From an uncultured bacterium (GTDB taxonomy: Bacteria; Bdellovibrionota_G; JALEGL01; DATDPG01), in assembly GCA_964397255.1 (NCBI GenBank), contig CAYNHQ010000004.1, positions 118,363 through 182,362 on the forward strand: a stretch of 64,000 bases of DNA, read 5' to 3'. The position numbers and the translations under genes were made by a program. Below the pieces are notes generated by a model. It had not been told where the DNA came from. It did not search any database and worked only from the letters and a program-made list of their open reading frames with translations. This document shows positions 32,040 to 60,466 of this stretch, one piece after another (positions within the stretch are counted from its first letter, which is position 1; every line of letters begins with the position of its first letter).

Positions 32040-32107
32040 ATAATTATTTAATCGTTTTGGTGAGTTGTGTCTACGTTCGTCGATATGATTTTTGGTTCGT
32101 TTCGTCA

Positions 32108-34396: not shown

Positions 34397-34417
34397 AGGA
34401 CGCTCGTAAAACAAGTG

Positions 34418-35084: not shown

Positions 35085-35114
35085 TTATGTATTATACTGT
35101 GATACAGGGTACTT

Positions 35115-35324
35115 ATGGCCAAACTCATTCTCCAGAAAGTCTTGGATCGCAAAGGGATCACACAGTATCGATTTGCCAAGATGCTGGGCATTAGCCCTGG
35201 CGAGGCGTTTCGATGGTGCCAGGAGGGCTATAATCCGACGCTAAAGACGTTGATCCGTATAGCCGATGTTCTGAATGTAGGGCTGGATGACCTTGTTGAT
35301 CGCGCTAAAATCAGGCGCTCCTGA
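35115..35324 (+). CDS. XRE-family (Cro/CI-type) HTH transcriptional regulator
   Basis: 69 aa '...LDRKGITQYRFAKMLGISPGEAFRWCQEGYNPTLKTLIRIADVLNVGLDDL'. Confidence 0.7.
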   Translation: MAKLILQKVLDRKGITQYRFAKMLGISPGEAFRWCQEGYNPTLKTLIRIADVLNVGLDDLVDRAKIRRS

Positions 35325-35448
35325 CGGGGCATAATTGGAGCAGTTGGGACATTTTGGCCCACGAAGGCGCTATTATATCCTGTTGAATTCACAGAGATTT
35401 GTTTTGGCATCCTCCCTGCTCTATAAGTGCCTCGAAAGGGGTACGACT

Positions 35449-35895
35449 ATGAATTCGAAGTACATACATTTCTCGATTCTGATTGGTTCGCTCATTTTTG
35501 CCACCGCCGCCTTAAGTGAAGACAAGACGGACACTAAAGAGCTTCTCGGGACGAAGGAATGCAGTGTGGTAATCCCCAAAAACGGCCCTGAACCGACGGC
35601 TTTACGTCCCGAGATGGTCGATCAGAAATCAGGCGTAATTTTTGTCGAAGTCAAAAAGACCATCGGTCAAAACATTCAGTCATTCGGGCCATTACAAAAA
35701 TACTACGTCTTCGTGGCACTTAAAAAAGTAGGGCACGACAAAATCGAGTACAGCCTCGGAACTTATGACACGTTTAACGGAGCCAAATCGGCTGATGCGG
35801 CTAGTACGACCGTAGGAATTAACGACGACGCCAACGTTTCCAAGGAACGGGCTGTGGGTGTTTTCCAAGGTAAATCTACTCTATCCTGTCATTGA
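35449..35895 (+). CDS. Hypothetical secreted protein
   Basis: Signal peptide 'MNSKYIHFSILIGSLIFATAALS'. The start is ATG 35449, preceded by AAAGGGG. Confidence 0.45.
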   Translation: MNSKYIHFSILIGSLIFATAALSEDKTDTKELLGTKECSVVIPKNGPEPTALRPEMVDQKSGVIFVEVKKTIGQNIQSFGPLQKYYVFVALKKVGHDKIEYSLGTYDTFNGAKSADAASTTVGINDDANVSKERAVGVFQGKSTLSCH

Positions 35896-35901
35896 TAGTT
35901 T

Positions 35902-36312
35902 ATGTCTTTTAGGAAGTTCACTGCATTGTTAATTTTTTTCGTGGGTGGATCTGCACTCGCGGAGGAATTGGGAGCGCCTCGACTCCGCTGCAAAGCGAGT
36001 TACGGTATTGCAGGTCCATCTGGTCCCGCCGATATTCCCTTGAGGCCGTTCTTCCCTTCGTCAACTATCCGAGGACTCGTGAACGGAAAAGTCACAGACA
36101 CCGAAGTGTTTTTTGACGCTGTTTCGTTAGACAGCATAACGAAGAAAATTAACGACCGATATCCAGGCTATGCAACCATGGGGAAAATTGAGCCACTTCG
36201 CGTCGATTTTGCTAGGGGGATTGGCCAAGACTCCGAAATCGACCTGAGTATGGAGATTGATATCACGTCATCTGGTCACGACTCTTGTTCGCTAGTGAAA
36301 CCAAATTCCTAA
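35902..36312 (+). CDS. Hypothetical secreted protein
   Basis: Signal peptide 'MSFRKFTALLIFFVGGSALA'. Confidence 0.45.
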   Translation: MSFRKFTALLIFFVGGSALAEELGAPRLRCKASYGIAGPSGPADIPLRPFFPSSTIRGLVNGKVTDTEVFFDAVSLDSITKKINDRYPGYATMGKIEPLRVDFARGIGQDSEIDLSMEIDITSSGHDSCSLVKPNS

Positions 36313-36453
36313 AAAGCCCCATCGGTTTTACCTCTACCTATAGCTATTCCGAAGGGTATGAGAAAATTCGTGTTTCTGGCAAATTCTCATCAACTGGGCT
36401 ATTTACCGTAGGTCCTTTGCCGTTGAAACGAACGGCGAAAGGGTGGATAATGA

Positions 36454-36696
36454 ATGACGATGGTTCACGAAAATAAATTTCGATCTTCTTCAGAAGCTGA
36501 TGTTGACCTTTCTCGGCTGCCAGAGGGTCGGCTCGAAGAAATCCAGCAGGTCTTCAAAGTGCTCGGTATTGAAAAAGGGACATATCAGGGTGCCACTGAA
36601 TTGGGTAAACAGCTTCAAAAGGCGAGCAAACTACAATACGAAGGGATCGTCTTTACGACCAGTGGCAGTACGTCGTCGCCTCCCGAAACAAAGTAA
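36454..36696 (+). CDS. Hypothetical small protein (80 aa)
   Basis: ORF immediately upstream of the protease gene. Confidence 0.3.
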   Translation: MTMVHENKFRSSSEADVDLSRLPEGRLEEIQQVFKVLGIEKGTYQGATELGKQLQKASKLQYEGIVFTTSGSTSSPPETK

Positions 36697-36702
36697 ATTG
36701 CA

Positions 36703-37611
36703 ATGCCAAATTGGAGTGAGGTACTCAACGAGATCCAGCAATCGAAGCGTGTTGATGGTCTCGATTATGTTCGGCGCTCCTATCTGAAGAAACTCCACGA
36801 GAAACGGAACCGAAATATCATCTGCTACTATTCTGGCTGGCTACAAAAACCAGGAATCGGTGGCGTTGAAATCGACGACAACGACAAGAATGCCTTTATG
36901 GCGGCAATTCACAAACTTGACCGAGATAAAGGCTTGGATCTTCTGATCCACACCCCTGGTGGGCAGGTGGCGGCGACAGAGTCGATTGTCCACTACCTGC
37001 GAACGATGTTTAAGAACGACATCCAGGCGTTTATCCCACAGATTGCCATGTCGGCGGGGACGATGATCGCTTGTGCCTGTAGAAAAATTCACATGGGCAA
37101 ACAGTCGAACCTTGGGCCGATAGATCCACAATTTAGCGGTATTCCTGCGTATGGTGTCTTGGAGGAATTCAACCGTGCGGCCAAAGAAATCAAGGAAGAG
37201 CCAGCGAAGATCCCTCTCTGGCAGGTCATCATTGGCAAGTATCACCCGACATTCATTGGTGAGTGTGAAAATGCCATTGACTGGTCGCGGGACATCGCCT
37301 CCGAATGGTTGAAGGCAGGTATGTTCGAAGGGAAGAAGAACGCCCAAGAGTCTGCCGATAAAGTAGTCAAGGCCTTGACGGATCGTTCGGTGATGAAGAC
37401 CCATTCGAGGCATCTTGGTGCCGAGAAATGCAAGGAGATCGGCCTCGATATCGAGGATCTAGAGAAGGATAACGACCTACAGGATTTGATTCTGACGGTT
37501 CATCATGCCTATATGCACACGTTCTCGAACTCGTCGGCGATCAAGATAGTGGAAAATCATGAGGGCAGGGCAACTGTGATTCATGCCCAGATCCAAGTTC
37601 AAGCTCGGTAG
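36703..37611 (+). CDS. ClpP/crotonase-fold serine protease of the S49/SDH (serine dehydrogenase proteinase) family
   Basis: 'LDLLIHTPGGQVAATESI...IPQIAMSAGTMIACAC' is the ClpP-like catalytic Ser (A-M-S-A-G) context. 302 aa and cytoplasmic. Confidence 0.5.
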   Translation: MPNWSEVLNEIQQSKRVDGLDYVRRSYLKKLHEKRNRNIICYYSGWLQKPGIGGVEIDDNDKNAFMAAIHKLDRDKGLDLLIHTPGGQVAATESIVHYLRTMFKNDIQAFIPQIAMSAGTMIACACRKIHMGKQSNLGPIDPQFSGIPAYGVLEEFNRAAKEIKEEPAKIPLWQVIIGKYHPTFIGECENAIDWSRDIASEWLKAGMFEGKKNAQESADKVVKALTDRSVMKTHSRHLGAEKCKEIGLDIEDLEKDNDLQDLILTVHHAYMHTFSNSSAIKIVENHEGRATVIHAQIQVQAR

Positions 37612-37623
37612 TTTGCGAGTTTT

Positions 37624-37655
37624 TGGTATCAAATAGGTATCACTTTGGACGACGC
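37624..37655 (+). repeat. Second copy of the island-end arm-type repeat
   Basis: See 32108-32137. Confidence 0.5.
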
Positions 37656-37796
37656 ATCAACGACTTTTGTGCGTAGGGGAACGTATGTGGAACGAAGAGA
37701 GGAATTCCTTTTTGTTTTAACTGATTGTCTGCAAGCCCTTGTCGTGAAAGGGTTTTAGAGAAGCTGTGACTTTAGGCTGACTGAAAATTTCAATGC

Positions 37797-37842
37797 CACC
37801 CCATGCAAGTGCGCTACCAGGCTGCGCCACGCCCCGACTTGG
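37797..37842 (-). repeat. attR-like displaced tRNA-Pro 5'-half fragment (46 nt)
   Basis: Exact copy of 31994-32039. No tRNA 3' half follows, so this is a fragment rather than a gene. Confidence 0.85.
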
Positions 37843-37928
37843 GAAATCTTGTAATGGTTTTAACAAATTATGTCCAACAGAGCGCCCGCTTGCGAAAAGT
37901 AACGCCATGCACCATAATGCGACCGAGC

Positions 37929-42462: not shown

Positions 42463-42852
42463 TCGCGCCTCTCCTCGAAGGTGAGTTTTTTTGCATTGGG
42501 CAGGTCTCCTGGCTTGCGCTTTATTCCGACCCTTCCCACATTCCTGGCGAACGCAGTGGGTATCGAAATCTTCATTAGCGCTGACAGTGGCGGGACCGCT
42601 TCGGTATCACACCGAATTCCCTTTTAAGCCACCTTGGCACCCAAACGCCGTTGTGCATTCGATAACATGAGTGGCCTTGGAAGTCCCGATTTCTCACAAG
42701 AATGTGAGAAAAGTTGCACAGAGATGAAAACTTTTCTTCCTCTGCCGAAATTCTCCGATCGTAAGTGCCCAATATAATGAGAGAAAATTTCTGGCATCTC
42801 TGTTGCTACATTATAGAAGGGCCCCGCCAAATTTGGCTTAACTTTCGGAGGT

Positions 42853-47296: not shown

Positions 47297-48571
47297 ATGC
47301 TCAAAACAATCCTTCGAACTGTCCTAATCATATTGGTATTAGCCGGCGTCTTTTTCTTCGCTTTACGCATGTGGGAGGGAAAACGGGGCGCGCTTCCCAC
47401 GGCCACAGTGCCTGGGACACCTGAAGCGGCCATCACCGTTCGCCAGGTGAGTGTCGTGCCGACGGCGGAAGGCGCGCTAATCCAGATCGATGAAGTTTCC
47501 GGGCCCGGGTATACGATTACGCCGCTCGACACCGGTATTGGATTCGTTGTGGATATTCCCGGGGCAAAGGTGGGTATGCTCCAGAGTTCCATCCCGAATC
47601 CTCATCCGATGATCCGCAACATCGACGCTTCTCAAGTATTTGCCCAGGGCGCCGTGCATGCGAGGATTCGAGTCGAGCTCGCGCAGGAAGCAACGCATCG
47701 TGATCGGTTGCAGGCCTCCATCCTCTATATTGATGTTTTGTCCAAGGTCACGCCGACCGCAGCGCCTACGCCTGAATTAACTCCCATACCCAAACCAAAG
47801 CCAGTGGCGAAGAGTTCGAAGGCAAAAACGCATAAGCCCGTAGCCAAGAAGAAAGCGCCTTCGCGAAGAGCTTCACACACGGTAGCGACTTCGTCTCCCA
47901 AACGGTCAGCCCCGCCAAAACCTCGAGCTACACCCGCACCGATGGCGAAAGAAGGAGACTCCGATGCCTTGTTACGAGATTTAGGAATTGGCTCTGCCCC
48001 TCCGGCGGCTGCACCCGCACCTGAGCCGGTGGCTCCAGTGAAGGAACCTCCCCCTCCTGCTTTGGCTGCCGAGGCTGCGCCCCCTGCTGAGGCCACGCCC
48101 GCTGCGCCCGTGACGGATCTCGAATCCCTTTTTGTGGAGTCGCAGGGGGGAAAACCTGCCGAGGCCGCTCCGCCGCCTGCGGAGGAAGCCCCACCTAAAG
48201 TGGCCGCTATTCCACCCCCAGAAGCTGGAAAATTTGATTCGTCTCAAATCGCCCGGGATCTACCGGCGCTGACGGCACTCGCCGTGACCAGCGAAGGAGA
48301 GGCTACAGTTATCCGTTTCTCGCGTGAGCAATCCATACCTTTCAAAGTATTTAAAATGGTCAACCCGAATCGAATCACTGTCGATTTCAAAAATTCCGCG
48401 AATCATTTAAAGGCGAATTATCCCGCATTCCCTGGAACCAGGGTAAAGAAAGTGACGACGCAGAATTTTCCCGGCCAAGATGGGCTAACTCGCGTCACAT
48501 TTTTTATTGATGGTCTTCCGAAATATGAGTCGGCTACCGAAGGTAACGATCTCATACTGAAGTTGCCGTAG
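47297..48571 (+). CDS. AMIN-domain protein with Pro/Ala-rich linker
   Basis: N-terminal TM helix. One AMIN-like domain lies at ~aa 50-140 and another at the C-terminus ('ITVDFKNSANHLKANYPAFPGTRVKKVTTQNF...LTRVTFFIDGL'). Confidence 0.6.
   Translation: MLKTILRTVLIILVLAGVFFFALRMWEGKRGALPTATVPGTPEAAITVRQVSVVPTAEGALIQIDEVSGPGYTITPLDTGIGFVVDIPGAKVGMLQSSIPNPHPMIRNIDASQVFAQGAVHARIRVELAQEATHRDRLQASILYIDVLSKVTPTAAPTPELTPIPKPKPVAKSSKAKTHKPVAKKKAPSRRASHTVATSSPKRSAPPKPRATPAPMAKEGDSDALLRDLGIGSAPPAAAPAPEPVAPVKEPPPPALAAEAAPPAEATPAAPVTDLESLFVESQGGKPAEAAPPPAEEAPPKVAAIPPPEAGKFDSSQIARDLPALTALAVTSEGEATVIRFSREQSIPFKVFKMVNPNRITVDFKNSANHLKANYPAFPGTRVKKVTTQNFPGQDGLTRVTFFIDGLPKYESATEGNDLILKLP
48390..48571 (+). repeat. 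182-bp direct repeat, copy 1 (3' end of the AMIN-domain gene including its stop)
   Basis: 100% identical to 50015-50196. Confidence 0.9.
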
Positions 48572-48573
48572 AG

Positions 48574-48613
48574 GTATTCTGTATTTCGAATACTGAATTC
48601 CGTATTCCGAAAG
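48574..48613. repeat. GTATTC/GAATAC hexamer-rich palindromic element
   Basis: GTATTCTGTATTTCGAATACTGAATTCCGTATTCCGAAAG. A related element abuts the tRNA-Leu 3' end at 61901-61948. Confidence 0.5.
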
Positions 48614-48678
48614 TTCACCTGATTTCATCAACGATGTTACTACGGATATGGTCGGCCGGGCGATCTCGGCTTTAACCT

Positions 48679-48915
48679 TCACGCGGCTCGTTTTAATCGT
48701 TCCACACCTTCGACGACCAACATCCGCATGAGAGTCTGGTATGGCATGCCTTTTTGGGCCGCCAATTGTTTGAGTTCCGCTACGGTTTCCTCGGAAAGAT
48801 TGATGCTGGTGGGGTGTTTCTTTTGACTTTTTAGCTTTTTATAAGCGGAAACGATCTTCTTCGTTTCGAACGTTACCTTTTGATATCCCTTTTCACTCTT
48901 TACATAGTTCGGCAT
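48679..48915 (-). CDS. brnA: BrnA antitoxin
   Basis: 'MPNYVKSEKGYQKVTFETKKIVSAYKKLKSQ...INLSEETVAELKQLAAQKGMPYQTLMRMLV' (RHH). The start is the internal ATG of ORF 48679..49098. Confidence 0.6.
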   Translation of the reverse strand: MPNYVKSEKGYQKVTFETKKIVSAYKKLKSQKKHPTSINLSEETVAELKQLAAQKGMPYQTLMRMLVVEGVERLKRAA

Positions 48916-49237
48916 ATAGCTTTCTCTCCTTTCGGCTCGTATTGCGAATCGAAACGATCCGGATTCCAGTCCCTCGAATCGCAAAAACAACGAATACATG
49001 GCGCCCCGATTTGGTAACTCCCAGCAGCCCAAATCTTGGTTCATCCACTGAAGGTGAAACCTGCTCGCCCAAGATTCGAATGGCTTCGTTTTGCTCAAAA
49101 ACTTCTTCAGCTTCTATGCATGTAATCCCATGCTTTTTCAGGCTTTTGGTTTCATTTCCCTCATCCCACTCGTAGCGAAACTCATTCTGAGCGAGAATCC
49201 ACTCAGCGAGCCACGCTACAAATCGGAAATGCGCCAT
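48893..49237 (-). CDS. brnT: BrnT toxin (DUF497)
   Basis: 'FRYEWDEGNETKSLKKHGITCIEAEEVF...IRIVSIRNTSRKERKLY'. Confidence 0.7.
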   Translation of the reverse strand: MAHFRFVAWLAEWILAQNEFRYEWDEGNETKSLKKHGITCIEAEEVFEQNEAIRILGEQVSPSVDEPRFGLLGVTKSGRHVFVVFAIRGTGIRIVSIRNTSRKERKLYAELCKE

Positions 49238-49418
49238 CTGAGTCTAAGTATAGTGAAATTCACTATAGTAGTCAAAATGACTTAAGACTGATCTCTATCC
49301 AAGTTTGACGACAAGCTGGCGCAAGTCATTGCAAGCTTTAATTATTCTTCGCTTTTTTGTGTTGCGCGTTGCGCTAATTCGACCACTGTGGTACTAGCCG
49401 GTGCTTCCGGTGAGGATC

Positions 49419-50009
49419 ATGAAAACAGGCATTCTATTCATTCTAGGTTGTACCCTACTGTCATCGACTTCCATGGCCGAAAGACAGGTTTCAAAAGCCG
49501 GCCCCATCGGCAGGAACGTGACGCATTTTTACCATCCGACCTGCAATCTTTATCTGCGCGCGGAAAACGATCCAGAAGACGAGATCACCAAACGCCTCGA
49601 TCTTGGAGGCTCGACCACAACATTCCACCGTTCACCTCAGACGATTCAGAGATTGGCCGCTTCAAAGGGGTTCAGGCTAGACCTTCGTCGACCGTTGGCT
49701 GAAACGGAATCAACTGATCGAGACCTTGGGAAGTTGGTTCTCTCTCTTCAGAGTGGCCGCGAATCACGCGATCCTTTTAGTGGAAAAGATTACTCTGGCT
49801 ATCGAGCAAATGTTCAGATTCTCGAAATTGTCCAAAATGGAGAAGGGGGTTTTTCGTTCCACGTCCATTACAGCGAATACCAGAACGATTACATCCATCG
49901 GCTGGATCGGACGAGGCCGGAAACACCTTATGGCAAGCTGTTAGAACAAGCGTTTGAACGTATTCCCGACTGTGTAGTCACGGGCCTTCAAACGAATTCA
50001 AGAAAGTAA
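49419..50009 (+). CDS. Hypothetical secreted protein
   Basis: Signal peptide 'MKTGILFILGCTLLSSTSMA'. Confidence 0.45.
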   Translation: MKTGILFILGCTLLSSTSMAERQVSKAGPIGRNVTHFYHPTCNLYLRAENDPEDEITKRLDLGGSTTTFHRSPQTIQRLAASKGFRLDLRRPLAETESTDRDLGKLVLSLQSGRESRDPFSGKDYSGYRANVQILEIVQNGEGGFSFHVHYSEYQNDYIHRLDRTRPETPYGKLLEQAFERIPDCVVTGLQTNSRK

Positions 50010-50014
50010 TTTTT

Positions 50015-50196
50015 AAAATTCCGCGAATCATTTAAAGGCGAATTATCCCGCATTCCCTGGAACCAGGGTAAAGAAAGTGACGACGCAGAATTTTCCCGGC
50101 CAAGATGGGCTAACTCGCGTCACATTTTTTATTGATGGTCTTCCGAAATATGAGTCGGCTACCGAAGGTAACGATCTCATACTGAAGTTGCCGTAG
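50015..50196 (+). repeat. 182-bp direct repeat, copy 2 (displaced gene-3'-end duplicate)
   Basis: 100% identical to 48390-48571. Confidence 0.9.
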
Positions 50197-50481
50197 TTAA
50201 AAGAGAAACGTCGCAGAGAGAGAAGTGTAGCAATCGGAACTGTAGGTATGTGGGGTATTGCTACAACTCCTCTCCTCCGCGAATTCGTTTCACGCTTTGA
50301 GTAACGCATACTCTAGGCCACATACGAACAGAATTAATTGATTAATATTAATGACTTGTAAAATATGGCTCTTTACTACTCGAAAGTAGAGTTTCCTATA
50401 GGTGCCACCATCTTCGAAAAATAATTATTGATATTAAATACTTAAATCAGTTTATGAACTTTATTTGGCTTATGCTAAGAA

Positions 50482-53400
50482 TTGCATCATTTAGTGTGCT
50501 ATTCTCAGGGTTCATTGAACTTCAAACAGATCCATTTTGCCCAACATTATAAGTTGATCGCCCCACTAGGTCAGGGTGGGATGGGGAAAGTATTTGAAGC
50601 AGAAGACCTTCGTTTCCCCGGCCGACGGATTGCGCTGAAGCAATTGAATGAAAGTGATCCCATCTGGGTCGCCACATTTCGCCAAGAATTTTCCCTATTG
50701 GCCGCTTCGCAACATCCCAACATTCTCGATGTATACGAATTTGGCAGGGACGAGGAAACGGGGATCTCTTTTTATACGGCGGAATTGATTCGAGGAGAGT
50801 CTCTCGCCCATCGTCGATTGTCTTGGAGCGAGAGGGAGCTGATCGAAGTTTTACTTCACATCGGTCGTGCCCTTCGATTCCTCGGCAGTCGAAGCATTAT
50901 CCATGGGGACATCAAACCGGGAAATATTTTATGGGATGCGAGGAATGAGGAATATCGATTGGTTGATTTCGGTCTTGCGCGCACGCGGACGGGCCGAGAT
51001 GTGCATGGCCAATCGGGAACCCCTCTCTATATGGCGCCCGAAATTTGGGAAGGCAATAGGGCCGACAGTCGTTCAGACCTCTTTTCCCTCGGTGTCACGA
51101 TCGAGCGACTCGCTTCTCATACGGACCCGCCGACCGCTCTTCGCTCGTCCCTTCGAACCGTCATCACTCGCATGACCGAGAAAAATCCAGATGCGCGATT
51201 TCGCGATGCGGATGCGCTGCTGGAAAATCTTTGTCGTACGGTCGACCCATCATTGGCAAAGGAAACTGAGGCCACTCTTAATGCCTATTCGGTTTCCCCT
51301 CGGCTGAGTGGTCGGCAAGAAGTGCTGACAGAAATTGCACAAGAGTTACGGGAGGGGAGGTCGCCGGTGGTGGTAACGGGGGCTCCCGGAATGGGCAAAT
51401 CGAGGCTCCTCGTCGAAATATGTCGGCGATTCCAATTGGAGGGAATTTCCACCACACTCATTCACTGTCAGCTTCATCAGGCGTTTGCGGATCAGATTGG
51501 GCATGCGATATCCGAACAAGAGCATTTATTGGTACTGGACGATGTTGAGTTTCTTCCCGAGAAAGATCAGGAACTTCTTCTCGAGGTGGTAAGGCGAATC
51601 GGACGAGAGAAAAAAGAAAAATTCTCCATCCTCTTCAGCACTGAACAAATTGAGCACGCGCAAGAATTTCCCGGGTTGAAACATCATCTCCTCAAGCCGT
51701 TCTCCTCTGAAGAAGTACACGACTACATGGAATCGCTTGGGGTGGAAGTCCATCCGGAAGTTCTCCGTGTATTGGTCCGGCTTTCGGGAGGGGTTCCCCT
51801 CTTGCTCGAGTCGATGGTTCGCGATGGGCTGCCGAATGTGGAAATGTTTTCAAAAGTCGAAGCCGCAGAAGAATTGAATAAACTGCACCCCCCGAAAGAT
51901 TATGAACGAATTTGGTCCGAACGAATTTTCACACTTTCATCCGATGAACGGCGTCTCTTGGAGTTTCTCGCGATCGCTGACGCCCCATTGCCGATAAATT
52001 ATGGGGTCGACGACAGTCGCCAAAGCGCCCGCCTGATGTCTCTTCACCTCGCTCGCGGAGCGATTTTGGGTAATCGTTCCGCCTGCGTGATCGAGAGCCC
52101 TGCGGTAGCTGAATTGGCATTGAAGAATTTGTCTTCCGCCGACCTCCGGAATCGGCATCGGGAGGTAGCGGATCTCTTCGAAGGCGTCCTCTCCTCCGAA
52201 GCCGGACGCCCTTTGGAATTAATTACCCAGGTGGCGGTACATAGGTCTCTTTCAGGAGACCTGACCCAAGCCTCGCCTTTTCTTGCGGAAGCTCTAGGAC
52301 AATTTCTCAAATCGCATGCGAATGATGAAGGAATACTGATGTTGCGACGTATTCCGATCGAGGGGCATTGGAGCGGATCCGCTCGCTCCACGGCCGCAGA
52401 ACTTTGGGCTCGTGTAGGGGAATACGACCGCGCATTTGAACAATTGATCCAGCTCCAAAAAGAAAAGGGAGAATCGAAAGCCATCATTCTTCGTCGAATG
52501 GCTGATTTGCAACTCAAAAGGAGAAAGTTCAAAGAGGCTTTGGAACAAGTCACTGAAGCGGAAAATGAGATCTCTGCCCTCGAGGAGAACCAGAGAAAAG
52601 AAGAACGGGTTCACCTTCTCTTGGTTCGACAAACCATCGCGCTTTTACAAGGGGGCTACCCCCTGGTGGAAGCTACCGGCCGCGAAATCGAAAAGAAAGC
52701 TCCGGAAGGTATGGTGCGCGAGCGCGCTTCATCGCTCTGCATGCGTGGCCATGCAGCGCAGATGGAAGGGCGTCTACAAGAAGCAGGAAAAAAATTTCGC
52801 GCGGCACTTCAATTAGGAGAAGAAAGTAAAAACCTCTCGGCACAGTCAATGGCCTGGGGAAATCTCGGAAAGTTGGCACAGCATGAAAGCCGATTCGCGG
52901 ATGCGGAAAAGGATTTTAGAAAGGCCATGGAATTTGCGGAAAAAGCGCGAGATTATCTGGCCCTTGCCACGCTTCAGATGAACGTTTCGGCGCTTTGCCA
53001 AAAAATAGGAAAGTATCGTGAAGCCTGTGACTCGATTGAACGGAGCGTCGAAATTTATCGGCGACTTGGAAATCATGAAGAGTTTGCGCTGGCGCTTTAT
53101 ACGCGAGCCTCGCTTCGATTTTCTCTCTTTGGTTCCGATACAGCAGTGACCGACGATGTCCAAAACGCTTTGGAGTTGGCCGAAGCGGCTGGCAATGAGG
53201 ATGCTGCCGCATATGCGCATCTTTTATTGGCAAGAGTTTCAAAAAACTCCGCGAGCCGATCCCATTGGGATACCGCTCGCCGATCTTTTCGAAAACGAAT
53301 GGACTCCTCGGGTCTTCGCGAGGCTGCGTTGGTTGCACTGGAAGAGCACTTCGCTCCAGAAACGAAAGAACTCGAGATCGATGAAATGGATCTTGAGCAA

Positions 53401-55416
53401 CGCCTACGTTTTGCGGCGTGGAAGTTCGTCGAAGGAAAAGGGAGTCAAGAGGGAGAACTATTGAGCCCCGTGTTGCGGAAAATGGCCGATAAAAATCCCA
53501 ATCCGGAGCTGCTGGCTCAGTTTCTTTCTCTTCAGGTTCAATTCAAGAAGGGGCAACCAAGGGACCCAATGGCGGCTTCACAAGCCATTTTGATATTTGA
53601 AGGCTTGAGTGCTTCGCTGGGAGAAGAAGATCAAGAGGCCTATCTCTCGGTACGCCGAGTCGATGACTTGAAAAAATTAGTGACCGAAGATGATGAATTG
53701 CCAGGATCCCCTTCCGTGATTCACGCCGAGGTTGATGAGAAAGCGACGATTCAGGACTATAGAAAAAACTCGCTTTCAGAGGAAGACCTTATTACGACCC
53801 GCGCGGGGCGTGAGCTCCCTGCGAATTCACTCGGCAGACTTCTTGGAATGATCAAATTGCTAAATGATGAAATTGAATTTCAAAAAACGGTTGATCTTCT
53901 TCTCGATTTTGCCGTCGCGGAAACAAAGGCGGAGCGTGGGTTTTTTGTAACCGAAGAGGGCGACGATTTCCGCGTCGTTTCGGCCCGGAACATGAAGCAG
54001 CTGTGGATTCGTGAGCCCAACTCTCGGTTTAGCCGAACGGCCGTAAAAAAGGCGCTCCGGTCAGGCGCGACGATTACCGAAGGAGATGTAGCCGAGTCAA
54101 AATCTTGGAAAAATTCGCCCAGCCTTGTGAACCAAGAGGTTCGATCATTCCTGGCCGTTCCGTTGCGATCTCAAGAAAAAATTATGGGAGTTATTTATTT
54201 GGATCGCCGCAAGTCCCCGAAGGCGTTTAGCAGCACGGAAGTCCTCATTGTGGAAGCGCTGGCGGAACAAGGGAGCACGGCCCTTCGAAAGAATGAGTTG
54301 ATGAGCGAACTCAAAATTCAAGCGGAACGAATTGCGCAGTTCAATGGAAAATTGGAGGACGAACTTGAATCCAAAGAAACGCAAATTCAGCAGACGGAGA
54401 CCCTGTTACAAAAAACCGGTTCGGAAGATTCCATATTTCACCGCCACGCACAAATCATCGCGAAGAGTGATCGCATGCGAAACATTCTTCGTACGGTAGA
54501 GACCATTGCCGCCTCAAGATCCTATTGTTACATCTCTGGAGAGTCTGGAACTGGCAAGGAGTTGATTGCGCAAGCGTTGCACGAACGATCTCCTCAGGCT
54601 CGGGGCCCTTGGGTTCCGGTGCAATGCGGGAGCATTCCCGAAGATCTTTTTGACGCGCTCTTCTTTGGGCATGAAAAAGGGGCTTTCACTGGTGCGGATA
54701 AGGCGCGGGTCGGTTTTTTCGTGGCCGCGAATGGGGGAACTCTTTTTCTGGATGAGATAGACCAACTCAAGCCGGATCAACAAGCGAAACTGCTCCGGGC
54801 TCTTCAGGAATCGAAGGTCTTGCCGGTCGGCAAAACTGCAGAAGTTTCTTTCTCGATACGTGTCGTAACGGCATCCAACCGGGATCTCGAGAAGCTGAGA
54901 GCGGCGGGGGATTTTCGAGAGGATCTTTTTTATCGCCTCCATGTGATTCGGATCGACCTTCCTCCCTTACGCGAAAGAATCGAAGATATTCCGCTTCTCA
55001 TCCATCATTTTCTAAAGATGTCAGCGCTGACCCAAAAATACCCTCTGACAGTGGCGGATAATGCGCTTGAGGCTCTGATGAGATACCGCTGGCCGGGAAA
55101 TATACGCGAACTGAAAAATGAGATGGACCGAATTGTGGCACTCCTTCCGCTCTCTTCCGGAGGCAAACGTAGAATTAAGCTGGAGGACCTTTCGCCTGTG
55201 ATCCGTGGGGGATCCATGGGAGAGGCGATAAGCGATGATGAACCGTTTCATGAAGCAATTGATCGGTTTACGGCACAGCGAATTTTGCTTGTTCTCAAGA
55301 AGACCAAAGGGAACCGAACCAAGGCCGCGCAGCTCGTCGGAATGCACCGAAACGGGTTCAATCGAATGCTTCAGCGACTCAAAATTAAAGTCCTACCTCG
55401 TTCAGCTTATGATTAA
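50482..55416 (+). CDS. Multidomain regulator: Ser/Thr protein kinase + STAND/AAA ATPase + TPR repeats + GAF + sigma-54 interaction (AAA+) domain + Fis-type HTH
   Basis: Kinase: 'LGQGGMGKVFEA', 'HGDIKPGNILW', 'GTPLYMAPE'. P-loop 'VVTGAPGMGKSRLL'. TPR-like helical repeats span ~aa 600-1000. GAF domain lies at ~aa 1180-1290. EBP core 'ISGESGTGKELIA...EKGAFTGA...GGTLFLDEI'. C-terminal HTH 'KGNRTKAAQLVGMHRNGFNRMLQRL'. TTG or GTG start. Confidence 0.8.
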   Translation: MHHLVCYSQGSLNFKQIHFAQHYKLIAPLGQGGMGKVFEAEDLRFPGRRIALKQLNESDPIWVATFRQEFSLLAASQHPNILDVYEFGRDEETGISFYTAELIRGESLAHRRLSWSERELIEVLLHIGRALRFLGSRSIIHGDIKPGNILWDARNEEYRLVDFGLARTRTGRDVHGQSGTPLYMAPEIWEGNRADSRSDLFSLGVTIERLASHTDPPTALRSSLRTVITRMTEKNPDARFRDADALLENLCRTVDPSLAKETEATLNAYSVSPRLSGRQEVLTEIAQELREGRSPVVVTGAPGMGKSRLLVEICRRFQLEGISTTLIHCQLHQAFADQIGHAISEQEHLLVLDDVEFLPEKDQELLLEVVRRIGREKKEKFSILFSTEQIEHAQEFPGLKHHLLKPFSSEEVHDYMESLGVEVHPEVLRVLVRLSGGVPLLLESMVRDGLPNVEMFSKVEAAEELNKLHPPKDYERIWSERIFTLSSDERRLLEFLAIADAPLPINYGVDDSRQSARLMSLHLARGAILGNRSACVIESPAVAELALKNLSSADLRNRHREVADLFEGVLSSEAGRPLELITQVAVHRSLSGDLTQASPFLAEALGQFLKSHANDEGILMLRRIPIEGHWSGSARSTAAELWARVGEYDRAFEQLIQLQKEKGESKAIILRRMADLQLKRRKFKEALEQVTEAENEISALEENQRKEERVHLLLVRQTIALLQGGYPLVEATGREIEKKAPEGMVRERASSLCMRGHAAQMEGRLQEAGKKFRAALQLGEESKNLSAQSMAWGNLGKLAQHESRFADAEKDFRKAMEFAEKARDYLALATLQMNVSALCQKIGKYREACDSIERSVEIYRRLGNHEEFALALYTRASLRFSLFGSDTAVTDDVQNALELAEAAGNEDAAAYAHLLLARVSKNSASRSHWDTARRSFRKRMDSSGLREAALVALEEHFAPETKELEIDEMDLEQRLRFAAWKFVEGKGSQEGELLSPVLRKMADKNPNPELLAQFLSLQVQFKKGQPRDPMAASQAILIFEGLSASLGEEDQEAYLSVRRVDDLKKLVTEDDELPGSPSVIHAEVDEKATIQDYRKNSLSEEDLITTRAGRELPANSLGRLLGMIKLLNDEIEFQKTVDLLLDFAVAETKAERGFFVTEEGDDFRVVSARNMKQLWIREPNSRFSRTAVKKALRSGATITEGDVAESKSWKNSPSLVNQEVRSFLAVPLRSQEKIMGVIYLDRRKSPKAFSSTEVLIVEALAEQGSTALRKNELMSELKIQAERIAQFNGKLEDELESKETQIQQTETLLQKTGSEDSIFHRHAQIIAKSDRMRNILRTVETIAASRSYCYISGESGTGKELIAQALHERSPQARGPWVPVQCGSIPEDLFDALFFGHEKGAFTGADKARVGFFVAANGGTLFLDEIDQLKPDQQAKLLRALQESKVLPVGKTAEVSFSIRVVTASNRDLEKLRAAGDFREDLFYRLHVIRIDLPPLRERIEDIPLLIHHFLKMSALTQKYPLTVADNALEALMRYRWPGNIRELKNEMDRIVALLPLSSGGKRRIKLEDLSPVIRGGSMGEAISDDEPFHEAIDRFTAQRILLVLKKTKGNRTKAAQLVGMHRNGFNRMLQRLKIKVLPRSAYD

Positions 55417-55570
55417 AGCGCGGTTAGGATTCTTTTCTTAAAGGTGAGAGAGGGAACTATAGTCTACTTTAGTATGAAAAATTTGTTTACGATATTTTCA
55501 ATTTCTCGAAATATACATTTATAACATATTGTTATTATTATGTTTATTTAATATAAATAAGAGTAATTTT

Positions 55571-55586
55571 TGGTACAGTTATGGCA
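55571..55586 (+). promoter_or_regulatory. Sigma-54 (-24/-12) promoter TGGTAC-AGTTA-TGGCA
   Basis: GG (55572-73) and GC (55584-85) are separated by exactly 10 nt, matching TGGCAC-N5-TTGCA at most positions. The site lies ~35 nt upstream of ATG 55621 in an AT-rich intergenic region, directly downstream of the sigma-54 activator gene. Confidence 0.55.
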
Positions 55587-55620
55587 AGAAAACGAAATGA
55601 TGTGGCATGGGGTATCTAGA

Positions 55621-58332
55621 ATGAGAGTTGTCATAACTCTCATTTTTGCGTTTAGCCTCTTAGGGGATATTTTCGGGTGCAAGTTCCCGGGAAGTTCTTC
55701 CAACGTTTCCGAAGCCACTTCACAGGATCGACTCGGAAAATCAAACGACCCGAACGCGCTTCCCGATTCAGGGCCCGCACTTCCACCACCGATTGCCTAC
55801 CTCGTCCCTCTGGATGGAAACTTGGTCGTCGCAAAAGCTATCGGCGCCAATAAAGTTTTGGTGACCGGTCTTCGTGGATCAGCCGACCCCAGGGCGGTCC
55901 AAGTTTGTAGTGTCAACCAGACCCTGGGACAAATCTCTCCGGACTGTTCGACGATTACGAACGGATCGTTCAATTACCTCACCACCGGTTCCGTAGGCGA
56001 CAAGATTTCAATTTGGGAGAAAGCCCCCCAATATCCCGACAGCAGCCCCATCATCGAAGAAGTTTTATTAATTCAGCCACAATTTTCTCCCAAACAAATA
56101 TTGGGATTCGCACGAAGTGAGAATGGATTGTTCATTCAGTATGCAGGAGGCAAACTCATTTTCTTCCCAAAAGGTGAATGGCTTAAATCGTTGGATCAAA
56201 TTCAAACGATAGATCTTTCCAAAGAACTACCCTCGAACAATGTGATGTTTATGGCGGAAGATGATCAGGGGGGTGTATGGGTTTCAGACCAACAACAAAT
56301 CGCTCACTTTGTGAAAAAAGGAAGCTCGGTCGCGTTGTCCAAAATCTATACCCTATTCGATCATCCTGAGATTATTGCTCTCAAGGTACATCCCGTCGGT
56401 AATATTTTGTGGTTGGTTACCTCTAGCGAACTAATCCGAGCCGATTTTCCCAACGGGCCCGACAACGACCCGGTTCTTACACATTTCTCTCAAGGACCCA
56501 TGACTCTCCAATTTATTTCCGCACTTCTTCCAAACCCGTTAGAAGCGCAGGGATTTTGGGTGGCATGTTCCACCAACGGCCTCTTTTATTTTAAGGGAGC
56601 GATCAATGGATCGGAGATTGAGGAATATCCTGGAAGAGGCACCAAAATTACGAGTCTTGCCCGAAGTAACGACGGTGGAAGTATTTATTTTGGCGCGAAA
56701 GAAAACATGTCACGACAAACCATAAATTCTACGAGTTCAGGAGGGAACACTGGGTCCGGTTCTATAAGCGCTGGAGGGGGCGGCGACGCCACTTACTATG
56801 GAGGGCTTCATCAAGTTACGCTACCCAACGGCCACCCGGTCGCCGACCGATCACAGGGCGAAGATTATACGGTGACTCATCTTCTCCTCAATATCTCAGG
56901 ACAAAACACCGTAGATGTGACGAGCCTTTATAATCCTGGAACGGGCGGGATGTTCGTGGGTACGACGCACGGACTCGTTGTGATCGATAATCTCAATGAT
57001 CCGGATGGATCTTCGTATCATCCCGACCCCACATTTGTGGGAACCCAAAATCCGATTTATGCCATTTCGTATGAGCCGAGTGAACGTTCGATATGGCTCG
57101 GTGAAGAATACGAAGGCGTAGAGTTTGATGAACAGGGAAATCCGATCGCGAGGTTTCGGAAATACGACATCGCGAACGACGTCTGGACCTATTTTGCAAG
57201 TTGGAGAATGGTCGACTGGCATGCGAATGCGATTGCAGGAAATGGAAATGAAATCGTGGTTGGAACGGAATCAGGGGGCGCGAATCAATTTCTGCCTCCC
57301 AGTCCGAGCATGCCGAATGGAACGATGACATCACTTTATCCGCTCGGTTCCGAAATCAGCAGCAAAGTATCTGCTCTCGGGTACGACCACTTAAGAAGAC
57401 TTTGGATTGGACTCAAGGGGAGCTTAAGCGAGCACAACGGCCACGCCATTCGCGAGCTGGATGGAACATTGCGACTCCTCCCGCCGCCGGTCGTTTCTAC
57501 CTCTTGGGATTCTTATTTACTAGATGCAAATCCAAATGCTTTTGTCGCTGCCGGGACCGATTCCATGTGGGAATTGGCCGGAGGAATGGGGGGCAATTCC
57601 ATTCGTTATGTGCACAACGATGGGTCGTTTGAACTTCTCGCTCCCGGGCATCCTGAACCAGAGAATGACTTTTATGTTTCGCAATATGCCGTGATGACCA
57701 CCGACGGAGCGGGCGGTGTTTTTCTGGCGAATGGGAGTGGATTTTACCCGATCGGATCGGGGGAATCTCCTGAAGGGGTTCCAATCACTGAGCTATTTCA
57801 CATTACATTTCATACGGGAACACGAAAATTTGAAATCCATTCTCTTGGAATGATCGAAGCTGGGGTCGAGAATGTTTATGGCGCACTTGGACGCATGATG
57901 TTTGATGGAGCATCCTTGTGGATTGGCACGATGAAAATGCAAATTTATCGAATTGATATGGTTGATGGGCTTTCTGTGTCCAGTCTAGATCACGTGGCCC
58001 CCGGGGGATTGGTCCGTTTTGTGTTCCCTACCGGAGACCTGAATCAGCTTCCCATCAAAGTCGAGACATTGACCGACCAGGAATCGGTCGCTCTAACTTC
58101 CGATGGTCGCGGTGGTGTGTTCATCAATGAATCGGCGGACAATGTCGCCTACCATGGCACCGGAATTCTTCACGTTCAGAAAAATTCAGACGGCACCTTT
58201 TCCACTCAGCACCTTTCCACCCCGATGCGCGTGGATGAAAATTATTCCCTGATGACCTGGGTTCCTTCGCTCTCAAGTCTCGCGATCGGCTATTTGGACA
58301 ATGGTTTCGCTCTTCTTCCCTATCGATTTTAG
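55621..58332 (+). CDS. Large secreted lipoprotein with beta-propeller-like repeats (~900 aa)
   Basis: Signal/lipobox 'MRVVITLIFAFSLLGDIFGC'. Gly/Asn/Thr-rich repeated blocks suggest a propeller or beta-rich fold. No specific family assigned. Confidence 0.6.
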   Translation: MRVVITLIFAFSLLGDIFGCKFPGSSSNVSEATSQDRLGKSNDPNALPDSGPALPPPIAYLVPLDGNLVVAKAIGANKVLVTGLRGSADPRAVQVCSVNQTLGQISPDCSTITNGSFNYLTTGSVGDKISIWEKAPQYPDSSPIIEEVLLIQPQFSPKQILGFARSENGLFIQYAGGKLIFFPKGEWLKSLDQIQTIDLSKELPSNNVMFMAEDDQGGVWVSDQQQIAHFVKKGSSVALSKIYTLFDHPEIIALKVHPVGNILWLVTSSELIRADFPNGPDNDPVLTHFSQGPMTLQFISALLPNPLEAQGFWVACSTNGLFYFKGAINGSEIEEYPGRGTKITSLARSNDGGSIYFGAKENMSRQTINSTSSGGNTGSGSISAGGGGDATYYGGLHQVTLPNGHPVADRSQGEDYTVTHLLLNISGQNTVDVTSLYNPGTGGMFVGTTHGLVVIDNLNDPDGSSYHPDPTFVGTQNPIYAISYEPSERSIWLGEEYEGVEFDEQGNPIARFRKYDIANDVWTYFASWRMVDWHANAIAGNGNEIVVGTESGGANQFLPPSPSMPNGTMTSLYPLGSEISSKVSALGYDHLRRLWIGLKGSLSEHNGHAIRELDGTLRLLPPPVVSTSWDSYLLDANPNAFVAAGTDSMWELAGGMGGNSIRYVHNDGSFELLAPGHPEPENDFYVSQYAVMTTDGAGGVFLANGSGFYPIGSGESPEGVPITELFHITFHTGTRKFEIHSLGMIEAGVENVYGALGRMMFDGASLWIGTMKMQIYRIDMVDGLSVSSLDHVAPGGLVRFVFPTGDLNQLPIKVETLTDQESVALTSDGRGGVFINESADNVAYHGTGILHVQKNSDGTFSTQHLSTPMRVDENYSLMTWVPSLSSLAIGYLDNGFALLPYRF

Positions 58333-58384
58333 GGGACATAGCCACCTCCGGGACCACCGACCCATACTCCGATTTAAGATTTTC

Positions 58385-60466
58385 TTAGGGTAAGGTCACA
58401 ACCGTAATTGCGCTACCACTATATTGTTTCTGCCAGACCAAATTTAGTTTTGTTTGATTCGTCTGGGGGAATAAGGGGGGCGGGGATATGCTCAGTGCAG
58501 GGTCGTGACGGAAAACAATCCGGTTAAATCCGCCTTGGGTTCGATCGTTATCTGGGTGTGTATACGCGTTGAGCTGGCTGAATCCTTTTGTCCCTAAAGA
58601 GCCATAGAGCCAAATTTTTGCCTGACCCGCGCGAGCTACATCCACAAGAGAGTTGCTAAAATCGCAGCTTGATCCCCACCAGGTGGTATCAGCATCATGA
58701 GCTCTGCAATAAAGGGGCCTCGCTTTTGCCGAAACCGGTTTCCCCTGGCCATCCACATTATAATAGTAGGGAATATGACCTGGATTGCTGGTGTTTACGG
58801 GTGAGTGGGCCCAAAGCGCGCCTGTGACATCGGGAACGACGATTCCATCGTCTGAGAGATCGTAATCATTAATATTTTCGACGTAGAGAATTCCGGTCGG
58901 CAGCCCATGCTGAGTTTTATCGTCGCCAAGGGCAATGAAGGCACCCGAAAGATCGAGAATTCCGGGGATGTTGTGAGCGTAGGGAACGTCGTTTTCACGA
59001 TATTCATTGTCTTCTGCATCCCGATCAACTTCTGTGTTCGGCACGCTAAAATTACTCTTTCCATCGAAATAGACTTGATTGCTGGACGGCGTGTCTGTCG
59101 GTGAATCCCAGTGACGAAAGACGCTGACATAATGAGGAACGTCGATATTTCGAAGTGCAACCATGCCGAATGAATCGCCGCTATTTTTCCCTTGATGAGC
59201 GTAGTCAATATCTCCTTCAATTTTGCAATTTCCGGGCGACGGATTGGGAAGGTTTCCCGTTCGCTGAATCGGATCGTGAGAAGAATCGGCGTCACAGGCC
59301 ACCGTCACACGACCATTTACGATACCCCGCACACCGATCTCGACATTGTTCCCATAAATGACCATGTTGGGTGTAATCGGATAAGTTGCGATCGGGGTAG
59401 AGCCGTATCTGTCCCTTGGAGGCAAACCATCGGGAGCTGGTGAAACAGAGGCCGGCAGAGGATCGTAGTAGAAATCGGCGGCGCTGGAGTTGCAATCATA
59501 ACGTTTCACATATCCATCGGCTGTAAATTCCAGGCAGACCTCACCGGTCGGCGCGCTGCTGGGATCGAGGTTGAATTCCAGCCTTGTAGGTTCTACGGCG
59601 AGTTTGTCTAAGAGATCGCGTGAGATGTAATTCGAAACGTGGAAATTTCCCTTCCAGCCGTATTGAAAATCGACATATGTGGCGGGGTCGTAGTCAAACG
59701 GCAGAGATCCGTCCGGAACATTTAATTCAAACGTGACGGGGCCTTTAAAGATATGCTTCGAGACTCCAAAAAGTGGGGTATCGAGGAAATAGGGCTGAAT
59801 GGGTCCGAAGTGAACATGCCCATCGTATGTGGCCGTGCGAAGGGGAAAAAGCTTGTTCGGATCGGCGTGGGGAAGGGGCTGAGGATTAAAGAGGGCATAG
59901 TCGAGCTCGGCGAAACCGATTCTTTGGAGTGAAATTTCAGCTTCATACGTATATTTACTACCGCTTTGGGGATTCTCGGCCGTGGAAACAATTCGATAGA
60001 ATCTGGGTGAATCCATACTGTTGTTTTCAGGATCGGTTGGATCGGCAATGAGGGGCTTATTTTCCGAACTGGGATAATACCAAACCGAAAGCTTTAACGA
60101 ATCTCGAGTGAACTGAATCCGCGGCAGAGAAGATTCACCGATGGTGCTTCGAACGAGGCCGACATACTCCGGATTATGGATTGGGTAGAAGGCGGGTCCC
60201 TCCGCTGGAACCCGCCAATCTGGCGGAGTGTTGAAATCGGGAAGAACCGGTGCCGCGCGTGCGAAGAGGTCAGCCTTGGCCATTTCAAATCCGCTTTGTG
60301 CCAATTCTTCCAATGTGCTCTTGGATCGAAAGAGTTGGCTGATATGAATTCCGTTATGAGTCGCAGCGATCCATCCGGCGCCTGCCACCGTAGCGACGAG
60401 AAGGAGAATGAGTACAGCAATTAGCGCCGAACCTTTGTCTGTGCGAATTTCGTTTCTTTCGGTCAT
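58385..60466 (-). CDS. PilX-N-domain protein (type IV pilus minor pilin / tip-associated, 693 aa)
   Basis: The N-terminus 'RTDKGSALIAVLILLLVATVAGAGWIA' matches the PilX_N pattern. It lies immediately downstream of a prepilin-type gene. Confidence 0.45.
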   Translation of the reverse strand: MTERNEIRTDKGSALIAVLILLLVATVAGAGWIAATHNGIHISQLFRSKSTLEELAQSGFEMAKADLFARAAPVLPDFNTPPDWRVPAEGPAFYPIHNPEYVGLVRSTIGESSLPRIQFTRDSLKLSVWYYPSSENKPLIADPTDPENNSMDSPRFYRIVSTAENPQSGSKYTYEAEISLQRIGFAELDYALFNPQPLPHADPNKLFPLRTATYDGHVHFGPIQPYFLDTPLFGVSKHIFKGPVTFELNVPDGSLPFDYDPATYVDFQYGWKGNFHVSNYISRDLLDKLAVEPTRLEFNLDPSSAPTGEVCLEFTADGYVKRYDCNSSAADFYYDPLPASVSPAPDGLPPRDRYGSTPIATYPITPNMVIYGNNVEIGVRGIVNGRVTVACDADSSHDPIQRTGNLPNPSPGNCKIEGDIDYAHQGKNSGDSFGMVALRNIDVPHYVSVFRHWDSPTDTPSSNQVYFDGKSNFSVPNTEVDRDAEDNEYRENDVPYAHNIPGILDLSGAFIALGDDKTQHGLPTGILYVENINDYDLSDDGIVVPDVTGALWAHSPVNTSNPGHIPYYYNVDGQGKPVSAKARPLYCRAHDADTTWWGSSCDFSNSLVDVARAGQAKIWLYGSLGTKGFSQLNAYTHPDNDRTQGGFNRIVFRHDPALSISPPPLFPQTNQTKLNLVWQKQYSGSAITVVTLP

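Follow-up and report, generated by a model that had tools for sequence, protein, structure and literature searches.

A single intact bacterial gene lies at positions 50482 to 55416 on the forward strand of a 64,000-nt stretch of an uncultured Bdellovibrionota genome (the whole stretch is hereafter the window). In order, it encodes a Hanks-type Ser/Thr protein kinase, a STAND nucleotide-binding module, a TPR-like solenoid, a GAF domain, a sigma-54 interaction AAA+ domain and a Fis-type helix-turn-helix (HTH) domain, and it falls, as a divergent representative from Bdellovibrionota, into a widespread and apparently uncharacterised family. The open reading frame (ORF) comprises 1644 codons counted from a TTG, all in one frame and with no internal stops. 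The NCBI gene call (P0001, 1640 aa, on a 280,738-bp contig) is identical, with its start at GTG 50494. The start codon is ambiguous between TTG 50482, GTG 50494 and TTG 50515, the last of which has AGGG 5 nt upstream and best fits the short N-termini of homologues. The gene and its parts are as follows.

50482..55416, +, whole fusion gene, kinase-STAND-TPR-GAF-sigma-54 AAA+-HTH (1644-aa ORF, Pfam, colinear full-length homologues)
50548..51264, +, Hanks-type Ser/Thr protein kinase, residues 23-261 (Pfam Pkinase, PDB PknA/PknB, conservation)
51316..52122, +, STAND nucleotide-binding oligomerisation module with P-loop nucleotide-binding domain (NBD), helical domain and winged helix, residues ~279-547 (Pfam, AlphaFold2, Foldseek)
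52135..53688, +, all-alpha TPR-like solenoid, presumed STAND arm and sensor, residues ~552-1069 (Pfam, AlphaFold2)
53689..53877, +, linker of acidic character with Ser/Thr residues and predicted disorder, residues ~1070-1132 (AlphaFold2, alignment)
53878..54285, +, GAF domain, residues 1133-1268 (Pfam GAF_2, E 1e-14; alignment to the NifA model TIGR01817 begins at residue 1123)
54454..55212, +, sigma-54 interaction AAA+ domain and lid, residues 1325-1577 (Pfam, PDB, invariant columns)
55276..55377, +, Fis-type HTH_8 DNA-binding domain, residues 1599-1632 (Pfam, 26.1 bits against a cut-off of 22)

Pfam matches follow one another as Pkinase, AAA_16/nSTAND, TPR_12, GAF_2, Sigma54_activat, AAA_lid_14 and HTH_8, bearing out the six-domain order proposed earlier from the DNA letters alone (the original prediction). 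The motifs named at that time (HGDIKPGN, LVDFGLA and GAFTGA) are all found in the translation, together with GESGTGKE and the STAND P-loop GAPGMGKS. An NCBIfam scan of the protein returned no equivalog at its cut-off, the top model being NifA TIGR01817.

Residue conservation was read from an alignment of 29 full-length homologues with 23-27% identity (A1), which points to purifying selection on every active site across the set. The kinase matches Pfam Pkinase over residues 23-218 (E 5e-34) and aligns to PknA and PknB in the PDB (E 1e-23 to 1e-24), with the PknB alignment reaching residue 261. It carries a G-loop (GQGGMGKV), K53, E69, H141-G-D143, N148, D162-F-G and an APE motif at 185-187. The catalytic residues, which the original prediction had taken to be in place, proved intact: H141, D143, N148, D162, P186 and E187 are invariant, and K53 and E69 are kept in at least 90% of the homologues. 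By its motifs, the kinase thus appears catalytically competent. In RD kinases an arginine precedes the catalytic aspartate and couples activity to phosphorylation of the activation loop. The window kinase reads HGD at this position, as do 21 of the 29 aligned homologues, with HRD in 4, so that the kinases of the family are mostly of the non-RD type. An alignment-based search of the linker regions for a conserved Ser/Thr that might serve as phospho-acceptor found none.

The middle of the protein matches Pfam AAA_16/nSTAND over residues 275-374 (AAA_16, E 5e-10), with a Walker A motif GAPGMGKS at 300-307 and a Walker B motif LLVLDD ending at D353. P-loop residues G300 and G305 are conserved across the homologues, 26 of which retain GxxGxGK[ST], and the four closest orthologues (alignment A4) show no variation at G300, G303, G305, K306 or D353. 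An AlphaFold2 model of residues 255-1130, computed from a 41-sequence alignment (A2), reached a mean predicted local confidence (pLDDT) of 81.7 and a predicted template-modelling score of 0.74. In this model, a five-stranded NBD is followed by helices at model residues 155-245, a winged helix (helix 257-266, strands 270-275 and 278-283, helix 286-293) and an alpha-solenoid that runs unbroken over model residues 298-815, i.e. to about residue 1069 of the protein. A Foldseek search of the PDB placed the STAND-TPR protein 6mfv on top (E 1e-10), followed by Avs3, Avs4, CED-4 and Apaf-1, all with a probability of 1.00 and with global TM-scores that are low (0.24-0.30) because the compared structures are multi-domain proteins. 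The STAND assignment therefore rests on fold as well as on motif, and the structural elements typical of such proteins are all present: a P-loop NBD, a helical domain with winged helix, and a C-terminal TPR sensor. Within the solenoid, Pfam TPR_12 matches about residues 718-873 (E 4e-15), and TPR_MalT matches weakly (E 0.0025; 17.6 bits against a cut-off of 45). The linker beyond it has pLDDT values below 50 at model residues 817-863 and is poorly conserved among the four closest orthologues.

The remaining C-terminal part is, by its domains and motifs, a complete NifA/NorR-type bacterial enhancer-binding protein (bEBP) core, GAF-AAA+-HTH_8. Sigma54_activat covers residues 1325-1491 (E 7e-62) and AAA_lid_14 residues 1497-1577; PDB matches to the AAA+ part include ZraR, NifA and NtrC1 (E 1e-60 to 1e-67), as well as FleQ and PspF. 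The domain has a Walker A motif GESGTGKE at 1353-1360, GAFTGA, a Walker B motif LFLDEI (D1424/E1425) and the conserved arginines. G1353 through K1359, G1404 of GAFTGA, D1424/E1425 and the arginines are invariant in the 29 homologues, and the family consensus is GAFTGA. This loop is the sigma-54 contact of bEBPs and is usually lost in relatives that do not activate transcription. The hallmarks of a bEBP at the level of the protein sequence, Walker A and B, the GAFTGA loop and a C-terminal HTH, are all present.

A populated family and its known relatives

Hidden Markov models (HMMs) built from sub-regions of A1 were used to classify the homologue matches by architecture. The complete six-domain order was found in 43 of the 120 top clusters at 90% identity and in 55 of the 147 top representatives at 50% identity, and about 84 of the latter 147 combine an N-terminal kinase with a C-terminal sigma-54 module. 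With tens of clusters in the same order, the fusion is a member of a populated, modular family rather than a one-off. Named sources include several Sorangium strains, Polyangiaceae, metagenome-assembled genomes of Deltaproteobacteria, Gemmatimonadota and Planctomycetota. The Sorangium homologues are annotated in RefSeq as 'sigma 54-interacting transcriptional regulator', and the database family of that name (~1,600-1,850 aa) has the same domain order with conserved catalytic motifs. Its members are mostly stand-alone genes and share only 23-37% identity with the window protein. A contig scan with A1, in which generic bEBP peptide patterns prevailed, returned mostly ordinary activators, with one Rhodothermales contig among the results; matches extended beyond the C-terminal module only in L002, L005 and a few others (L013, L032, L033, L055, L079). 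A profile search with the four closest orthologues did not find further close relatives.

The closest full-length relatives, P0241 and P0242, are 37% and 34% identical to the window protein. HMMER aligns P0241 in a single stretch over residues 462-1637 and P0242 likewise from the STAND region to the HTH, and the alignment of P0004 covers 98% of the query. In A4 the alignment is unbroken at the kinase/STAND junction (four of four sequences) and at the GAF/AAA+ junction (three of three full-length sequences); the sequence of P0002 stops at a contig end, inside Walker A. Because independent genomes hold full-length homologues that are colinear across the junctions, the gene is not an assembly chimera, and the mis-joining that the original prediction had named as its own undoing is excluded.

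Other proteins among the homologue matches carry parts of the same assembly. The kinase-STAND-TPR-GAF front end is joined to a GGDEF diguanylate cyclase in P0076 and to HisKA/HATPase modules, with or without a receiver domain, in P0093 and P0100; kinase-STAND-TPR proteins without any other output also occur. Such combinations fit a sensor front end with a swappable output. In a permuted, kinase-free family (9 clusters by the HMMs; P0075, P0081-P0083, P0085-P0087, P0089, P0092, P0095), the sigma-54 AAA+ domain and HTH come first and are followed by STAND (AAA_16) and TPR, which shows that STAND modules were joined to bEBP modules on more than one occasion. P0243 (942 aa) and P0244 (1027 aa) apparently contain three tandem sigma-54 AAA+ domains, with three matches each to the sigma-54 HMM, an unusual arrangement for a bEBP. 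The earlier expectation that kinase-STAND-TPR proteins normally end in a LuxR-type HTH suits MalT; the relatives listed here stand alone or end in GGDEF or histidine-kinase outputs, although none of the searches was aimed at LuxR domains.

Among characterised proteins, the C-terminal 520 residues are most like NifA, NorR and FhlA, with which they share the GAF-AAA+-Fis HTH order, GAFTGA, Walker A/B and HTH_8. TIGR01817 (NifA) is the best NCBIfam match (E 8e-97, residues 1123-1553), and the C-terminus matches NifA (9qq6) and ZraR (1ojl) in the PDB with E-values of 1e-65 to 1e-67. An identity as NifA itself was rejected, as the score of 325.1 bits falls short of the equivalog cut-off of 528.85, and no nif genes were seen among the annotations of the window. 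Unlike these activators, the fusion has ~1,100 additional N-terminal residues (kinase, STAND and TPR), and to our knowledge no characterised bEBP carries such an N-terminus. NorR is a GAF-controlled bEBP (PMC2941729).

The N-terminal half resembles PknK of M. tuberculosis, a listed STAND kinase (PMC4381067), in having an N-terminal Ser/Thr kinase, a STAND module with P-loop and, beyond it, a sensor region of helices or TPRs. GAF, sigma-54 AAA+ and Fis HTH are all absent from PknK, which is reported to act on transcription indirectly, via phosphorylation of regulators (PMC9045387). The likeness is one of domains, the non-RD kinase (HGD) of the fusion being a further difference; some homologues of the fusion gene are labelled 'PknK' in Joint Genome Institute annotation. 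MalT of E. coli also joins a STAND NBD, helical domain and winged-helix domain, an arm and a TPR-like sensor to a DNA-binding output, and activates transcription after an inducer-driven ADP-to-ATP switch and multimerisation (PMC4381067). In contrast to the fusion, its output is a LuxR-type HTH that works with sigma-70 RNA polymerase, and kinase, GAF and a second ATPase are absent. The cyanobacterial 'dual protein kinases' (Ser/Thr kinase-GAF-histidine kinase; Krupa and Srinivasan 2005, PMC1262709) likewise have a Hanks kinase fused ahead of GAF and a signalling output of classical bacterial type, but that output is a histidine kinase rather than a sigma-54 activator.

Full-text literature searches, which covered surveys of kinase architectures, reviews of myxobacterial genomics and a 2025 survey of sigma-54 regulons (PMC1262709, PMC2877116, PMC11032199, PMC8538405, PMC4880591, PMC12316311), yielded no description of, or experiment on, a kinase-STAND-sigma-54 fusion. 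The original prediction had called this an uncharacterised architecture, which holds as far as the literature searched goes, though the counts above (43/120, 55/147) show that it is not rare. Fusions of kinase and sigma-54 modules in Sorangium were reportedly listed by Perez et al. 2008 and Schneiker et al. 2007.

Genomic context and candidate promoters

The gene is followed on the same strand by a second gene, and AT-rich DNA lies on both of its sides.

50310..50481, no strand, AT-rich 5' flank (GC content 0.26 at 50332-50481)
55417..55570, no strand, AT-rich 3' flank, leading up to the next gene (lowest GC content of the window, 0.213)
55571..55586, +, candidate sigma-54 promoter TGGTACAGTTATGGCA, 35 nt before ATG 55621
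55621..58332, +, Reg_prop beta-propeller lipoprotein gene with signal peptide MRVVITLIFAFSLLGDIFGC (Pfam Reg_prop, 29.2 bits against a cut-off of 20.4)

The 150-bp windows at 50332-50481 (GC content 0.26) and 55433-55582 (0.213) are the two lowest in the 64 kb, which has an overall GC content of 0.494 and a first percentile of 0.373 for stretches of this length. The AT-rich flanks noted in the original prediction are thus real. Of the two explanations offered for them at that time, recent acquisition found no support. The GC content of the gene (0.51; 0.507 at third codon positions) is typical of its neighbours, and its codon usage diverges little (Jensen-Shannon divergence 0.022, among the lowest of the window). 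The window is chromosomal, with BamA, ThrS and PheT present, and the neighbours of the fusion gene are chromosomal housekeeping and envelope genes. The ThrS of the window shares 67-76% identity with sequences labelled Bdellovibrionota, Bdellovibrionales or Oligoflexia. A related Bdellovibrionota genome encodes both P0242 and, on one 2.92-Mb contig with it, a ThrS with 73% identity to that of the window, and its fusion gene (locus L087) likewise adjoins a Reg_prop lipoprotein gene; with P0242 itself at 34%, the gene is common to related genomes but evolving fast. The other explanation, regulatory DNA, is plausible for the 3' flank, which ends in a sigma-54-like promoter ahead of the next gene, whereas the IHF sites also suggested earlier were not borne out, as a search of both flanks found no IHF consensus. 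On the forward strand of the 5' flank, ahead of the start of the fusion gene, matches to the sigma-70 and sigma-54 consensus are both absent. Scans of the flanks for a sigma-70 promoter or a terminator gave nothing convincing, an Rfam scan of 48500-58500 returned no matches, and no conservation was found between the DNA upstream of the window gene and that upstream of the orthologue in locus L086.

The stretch just upstream (48679-49098 on the reverse strand, and 49401-50309) holds a short ORF resembling CopG antitoxins (E 3.5e-6) and a pair of ORFs without a family match, of 202 aa (+) and 88 aa (-), and a 9-nt perfect inverted repeat, TGTAGCAAT/ATTGCTACA, lies at 50226-50265. The only mobile element seen is a probable integrated element at tRNA-Pro (31957-32033), spanning 31957-37874, in which a 78-nt direct repeat (31994-32071 / 37797-37874, the first 46 nt identical) brackets ~5.8 kb; an integrase gene of the tyrosine type (32124-33392) and a resolvase gene of the serine type (34377-35084) lie in between. 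The fusion gene, at a distance of 12.6 kb, is not part of the element.

The adjacent Reg_prop lipoprotein gene is, judged from its position and upstream sequence, the likely target or partner of the activator. TGGTACAGTTATGGCA keeps the GG-N10-GC core, with two mismatches to TGGCAC-N5-TTGC. In the related genome with P0242 (L087), a Reg_prop lipoprotein gene lies 48 bp upstream of the orthologue on the same strand (7583-14839) and is preceded by a sigma-54-like site, TGGCACAAAAATAGCT; as both genes sit behind this one promoter, the L087 activator may be positively autoregulated. The lipoproteins of the window and of L087 give a colinear alignment over the N-terminal part (E 5e-5), and each carries a lipobox signal peptide. 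In the locus of P0002 (L086), the site TGGCATGTGCATTGCT points at a divergent metallopeptidase-like gene, and the loci of P0004 (L081) and P0025 (L084) have similar sites immediately 3' of the fusion gene. The P0005 locus (L082) has a weak match that faces a convergent gene and, being weak and so oriented, is probably non-functional. In total, sigma-54-type -24/-12 matches that face the neighbouring gene flank the fusion gene in 6/6 loci where 0.23 would be expected (Poisson 1.6e-7), figures that depend on matrix weights approximating the published consensus and on a threshold picked post hoc, after the window site, the weakest of the six, had been seen.

Several candidates for a shared activator site were rejected. 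TTCCCGAA-like words, present upstream in L086 and L087 and once in the window, occur at near-background frequency; the flanks have AT-rich inverted repeats, none of which is common to the loci; and the perfect palindrome TTTCTCACA-N4-TGTGAGAAA (42690-42711) is unique in the window. The last of these lies ~85 nt upstream of a near-consensus sigma-54 promoter, TGGCATCTCTGTTGCT (42792-42807), itself ~55 nt before ATG 42863 of an M23 peptidase gene, in a classic enhancer-plus-promoter layout. An HU/IHF-like gene (44779-44501, -; Bac_DNA_binding, E 3e-25) is preceded at ~190 nt by a second near-consensus sigma-54 promoter, TGGCATCAGGATTGCA (44982-44967, -).

Proposed mechanism, alternatives and significance

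On balance, we favour the reading that the protein acts as a multi-input sigma-54 activator in one polypeptide, in which a PknK-like module and the GAF domain would gate the AAA+ ring and the adjacent lipoprotein gene would be the most likely direct target. The proposed mechanism borrows from MalT/STAND proteins on the one hand and from NorR/NifA on the other. In the resting protein, the STAND module would be closed with ADP bound, and AAA+ activity would be held down by the GAF domain. Binding of a ligand or of a partner protein to the TPR sensor, possibly along with a small molecule at the GAF domain, would open the STAND module and allow ATP binding and multimerisation. This, in turn, would raise the local concentration of AAA+ domains, so that a hexameric ring could form at upstream sites and remodel the sigma-54 holoenzyme. 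Multimerisation might also bring kinase domains close enough for trans-phosphorylation, of the protein itself or of other substrates.

Apart from the post hoc threshold and approximate matrix weights, a number of observations weigh against this reading. The match of TGGTACAGTTATGGCA is weak, its score of 11.3 being the 15th best in the window. The similarity between the window and L087 lipoproteins is low, both are repeat proteins, and the gene order differs, the lipoprotein gene lying downstream at a distance of 204 bp in the window and upstream in L087. A comparison of orthologous loci found no shared upstream activator sequence, the AT-rich flanks lack an IHF consensus, and distant homologues have no conserved gene neighbourhood, their neighbours being unrelated. 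The rpoN gene does not lie in the 64-kb window, and the presence of sigma-54 in the genome is deduced solely from the good promoter matches at 42792-42807 and 44982-44967. On the side of the protein, known STAND oligomers need not fit a hexameric AAA+ ring, the kinase may serve as input or output or act in feedback, and the literature searched yielded no biochemical or genetic study of any family member.

Two alternatives divide the protein differently. The GAF domain might control the bEBP part by itself, as in NorR and NifA, with kinase, STAND and TPR an independent unit that was fused by accident and lacks allosteric coupling. In keeping with this, the GAF-AAA+-HTH core is self-sufficient in known bEBPs, and a long, poorly conserved and disordered linker of about residues 1070-1117 separates the two halves. 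Yet homologues from several phyla, at 23-37% identity, retain all six domains in order, which argues for selection on the combination, and where the front end is joined to other outputs it invariably precedes a GAF domain; we therefore regard an accidental fusion as unlikely. Conversely, the protein might in essence be a PknK-type kinase, recruited to DNA or under GAF control, with the kinase as its true output; the bEBP part would then be degenerate or repressive, binding DNA as a tether without activating sigma-54. The invariant catalytic residues of the kinase would suit such a role, as would the existence of PknK-like kinase-STAND-TPR proteins without a bEBP module, and some bEBP relatives, such as TyrR and myxobacterial PexR, are reported to act without classical activation. 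However, Walker A, GAFTGA, Walker B and the arginines of the AAA+ domain are intact and family-invariant, GAFTGA is retained where non-activating relatives usually lose it, and each of the six loci has a sigma-54-type promoter match beside the gene, making a kinase-only output rather improbable.

The STAND module also brings to mind conflict or anti-phage systems of the Avs or NLR type, in which kinase and AAA+ domain would serve as effectors. Avs3, Avs4 and Avs5 are indeed among the Foldseek matches, and the PADLOC kinase models PD-T4-6, Mad6 and MkoA match the kinase domain. These PADLOC matches, however, are generic and at domain level (kinase, RtcR-type AAA+), while none of the PADLOC Avs/STAND defence models matches the STAND region; the gene sits among housekeeping and envelope genes rather than in a defence island, with the mobile element 12.6 kb off, and its product ends in a canonical transcription activator with HTH. 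A defence role thus appears highly improbable. That assembly or annotation mis-joined adjacent genes into one ORF has a negligible chance of being true: the unusual length and the metagenome-assembled contig are all that speak for it, against an uninterrupted 1644-codon frame, continuous alignments with P0241, P0242, P0004 and the A4 sequences, and the same fusion in dozens of independent assemblies, closed Sorangium chromosomes included.

The multi-input activator may be taken one step further, to a possibility that we advance tentatively: the fusion might represent an unrecognised class of sigma-54 activator, in which a STAND 'signalosome' nucleates the AAA+ ring, the complex or other proteins are phosphorylated by the attached Hanks kinase of non-RD type, and the system controls a secreted Reg_prop lipoprotein in Bdellovibrionota. 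If true, eukaryote-like phosphorylation, NLR-like oligomerisation and enhancer-dependent transcription would be joined in one polypeptide. Most of the named members belong to lineages with a predatory or social way of life (Myxococcota, Bdellovibrionota) or to Planctomycetota and Gemmatimonadota.

In bacteria, the input of Hanks kinases to transcription is mostly known via separate substrates, e.g. FHA-domain regulators and PknK targets, and we know of very few bacterial proteins for which the coupling of a STAND module to its output is understood. A natural kinase-STAND-sigma-54 fusion offers a self-contained system for both links, one that is open to point mutation (K53, D143, K306 and the AAA+ Walker B residue E1425) and has a promoter adjacent to it. 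What is new here is the divergent Bdellovibrionota member; the architecture itself is already in databases, experimentally untouched. As the gene is one divergent member of a well-populated database family, its value lies in the family rather than in the locus. For the organism, a Bdellovibrio-like bacterium, the proposed control of the neighbouring gene would mean that a beta-propeller lipoprotein at the surface or in the periplasm is regulated.

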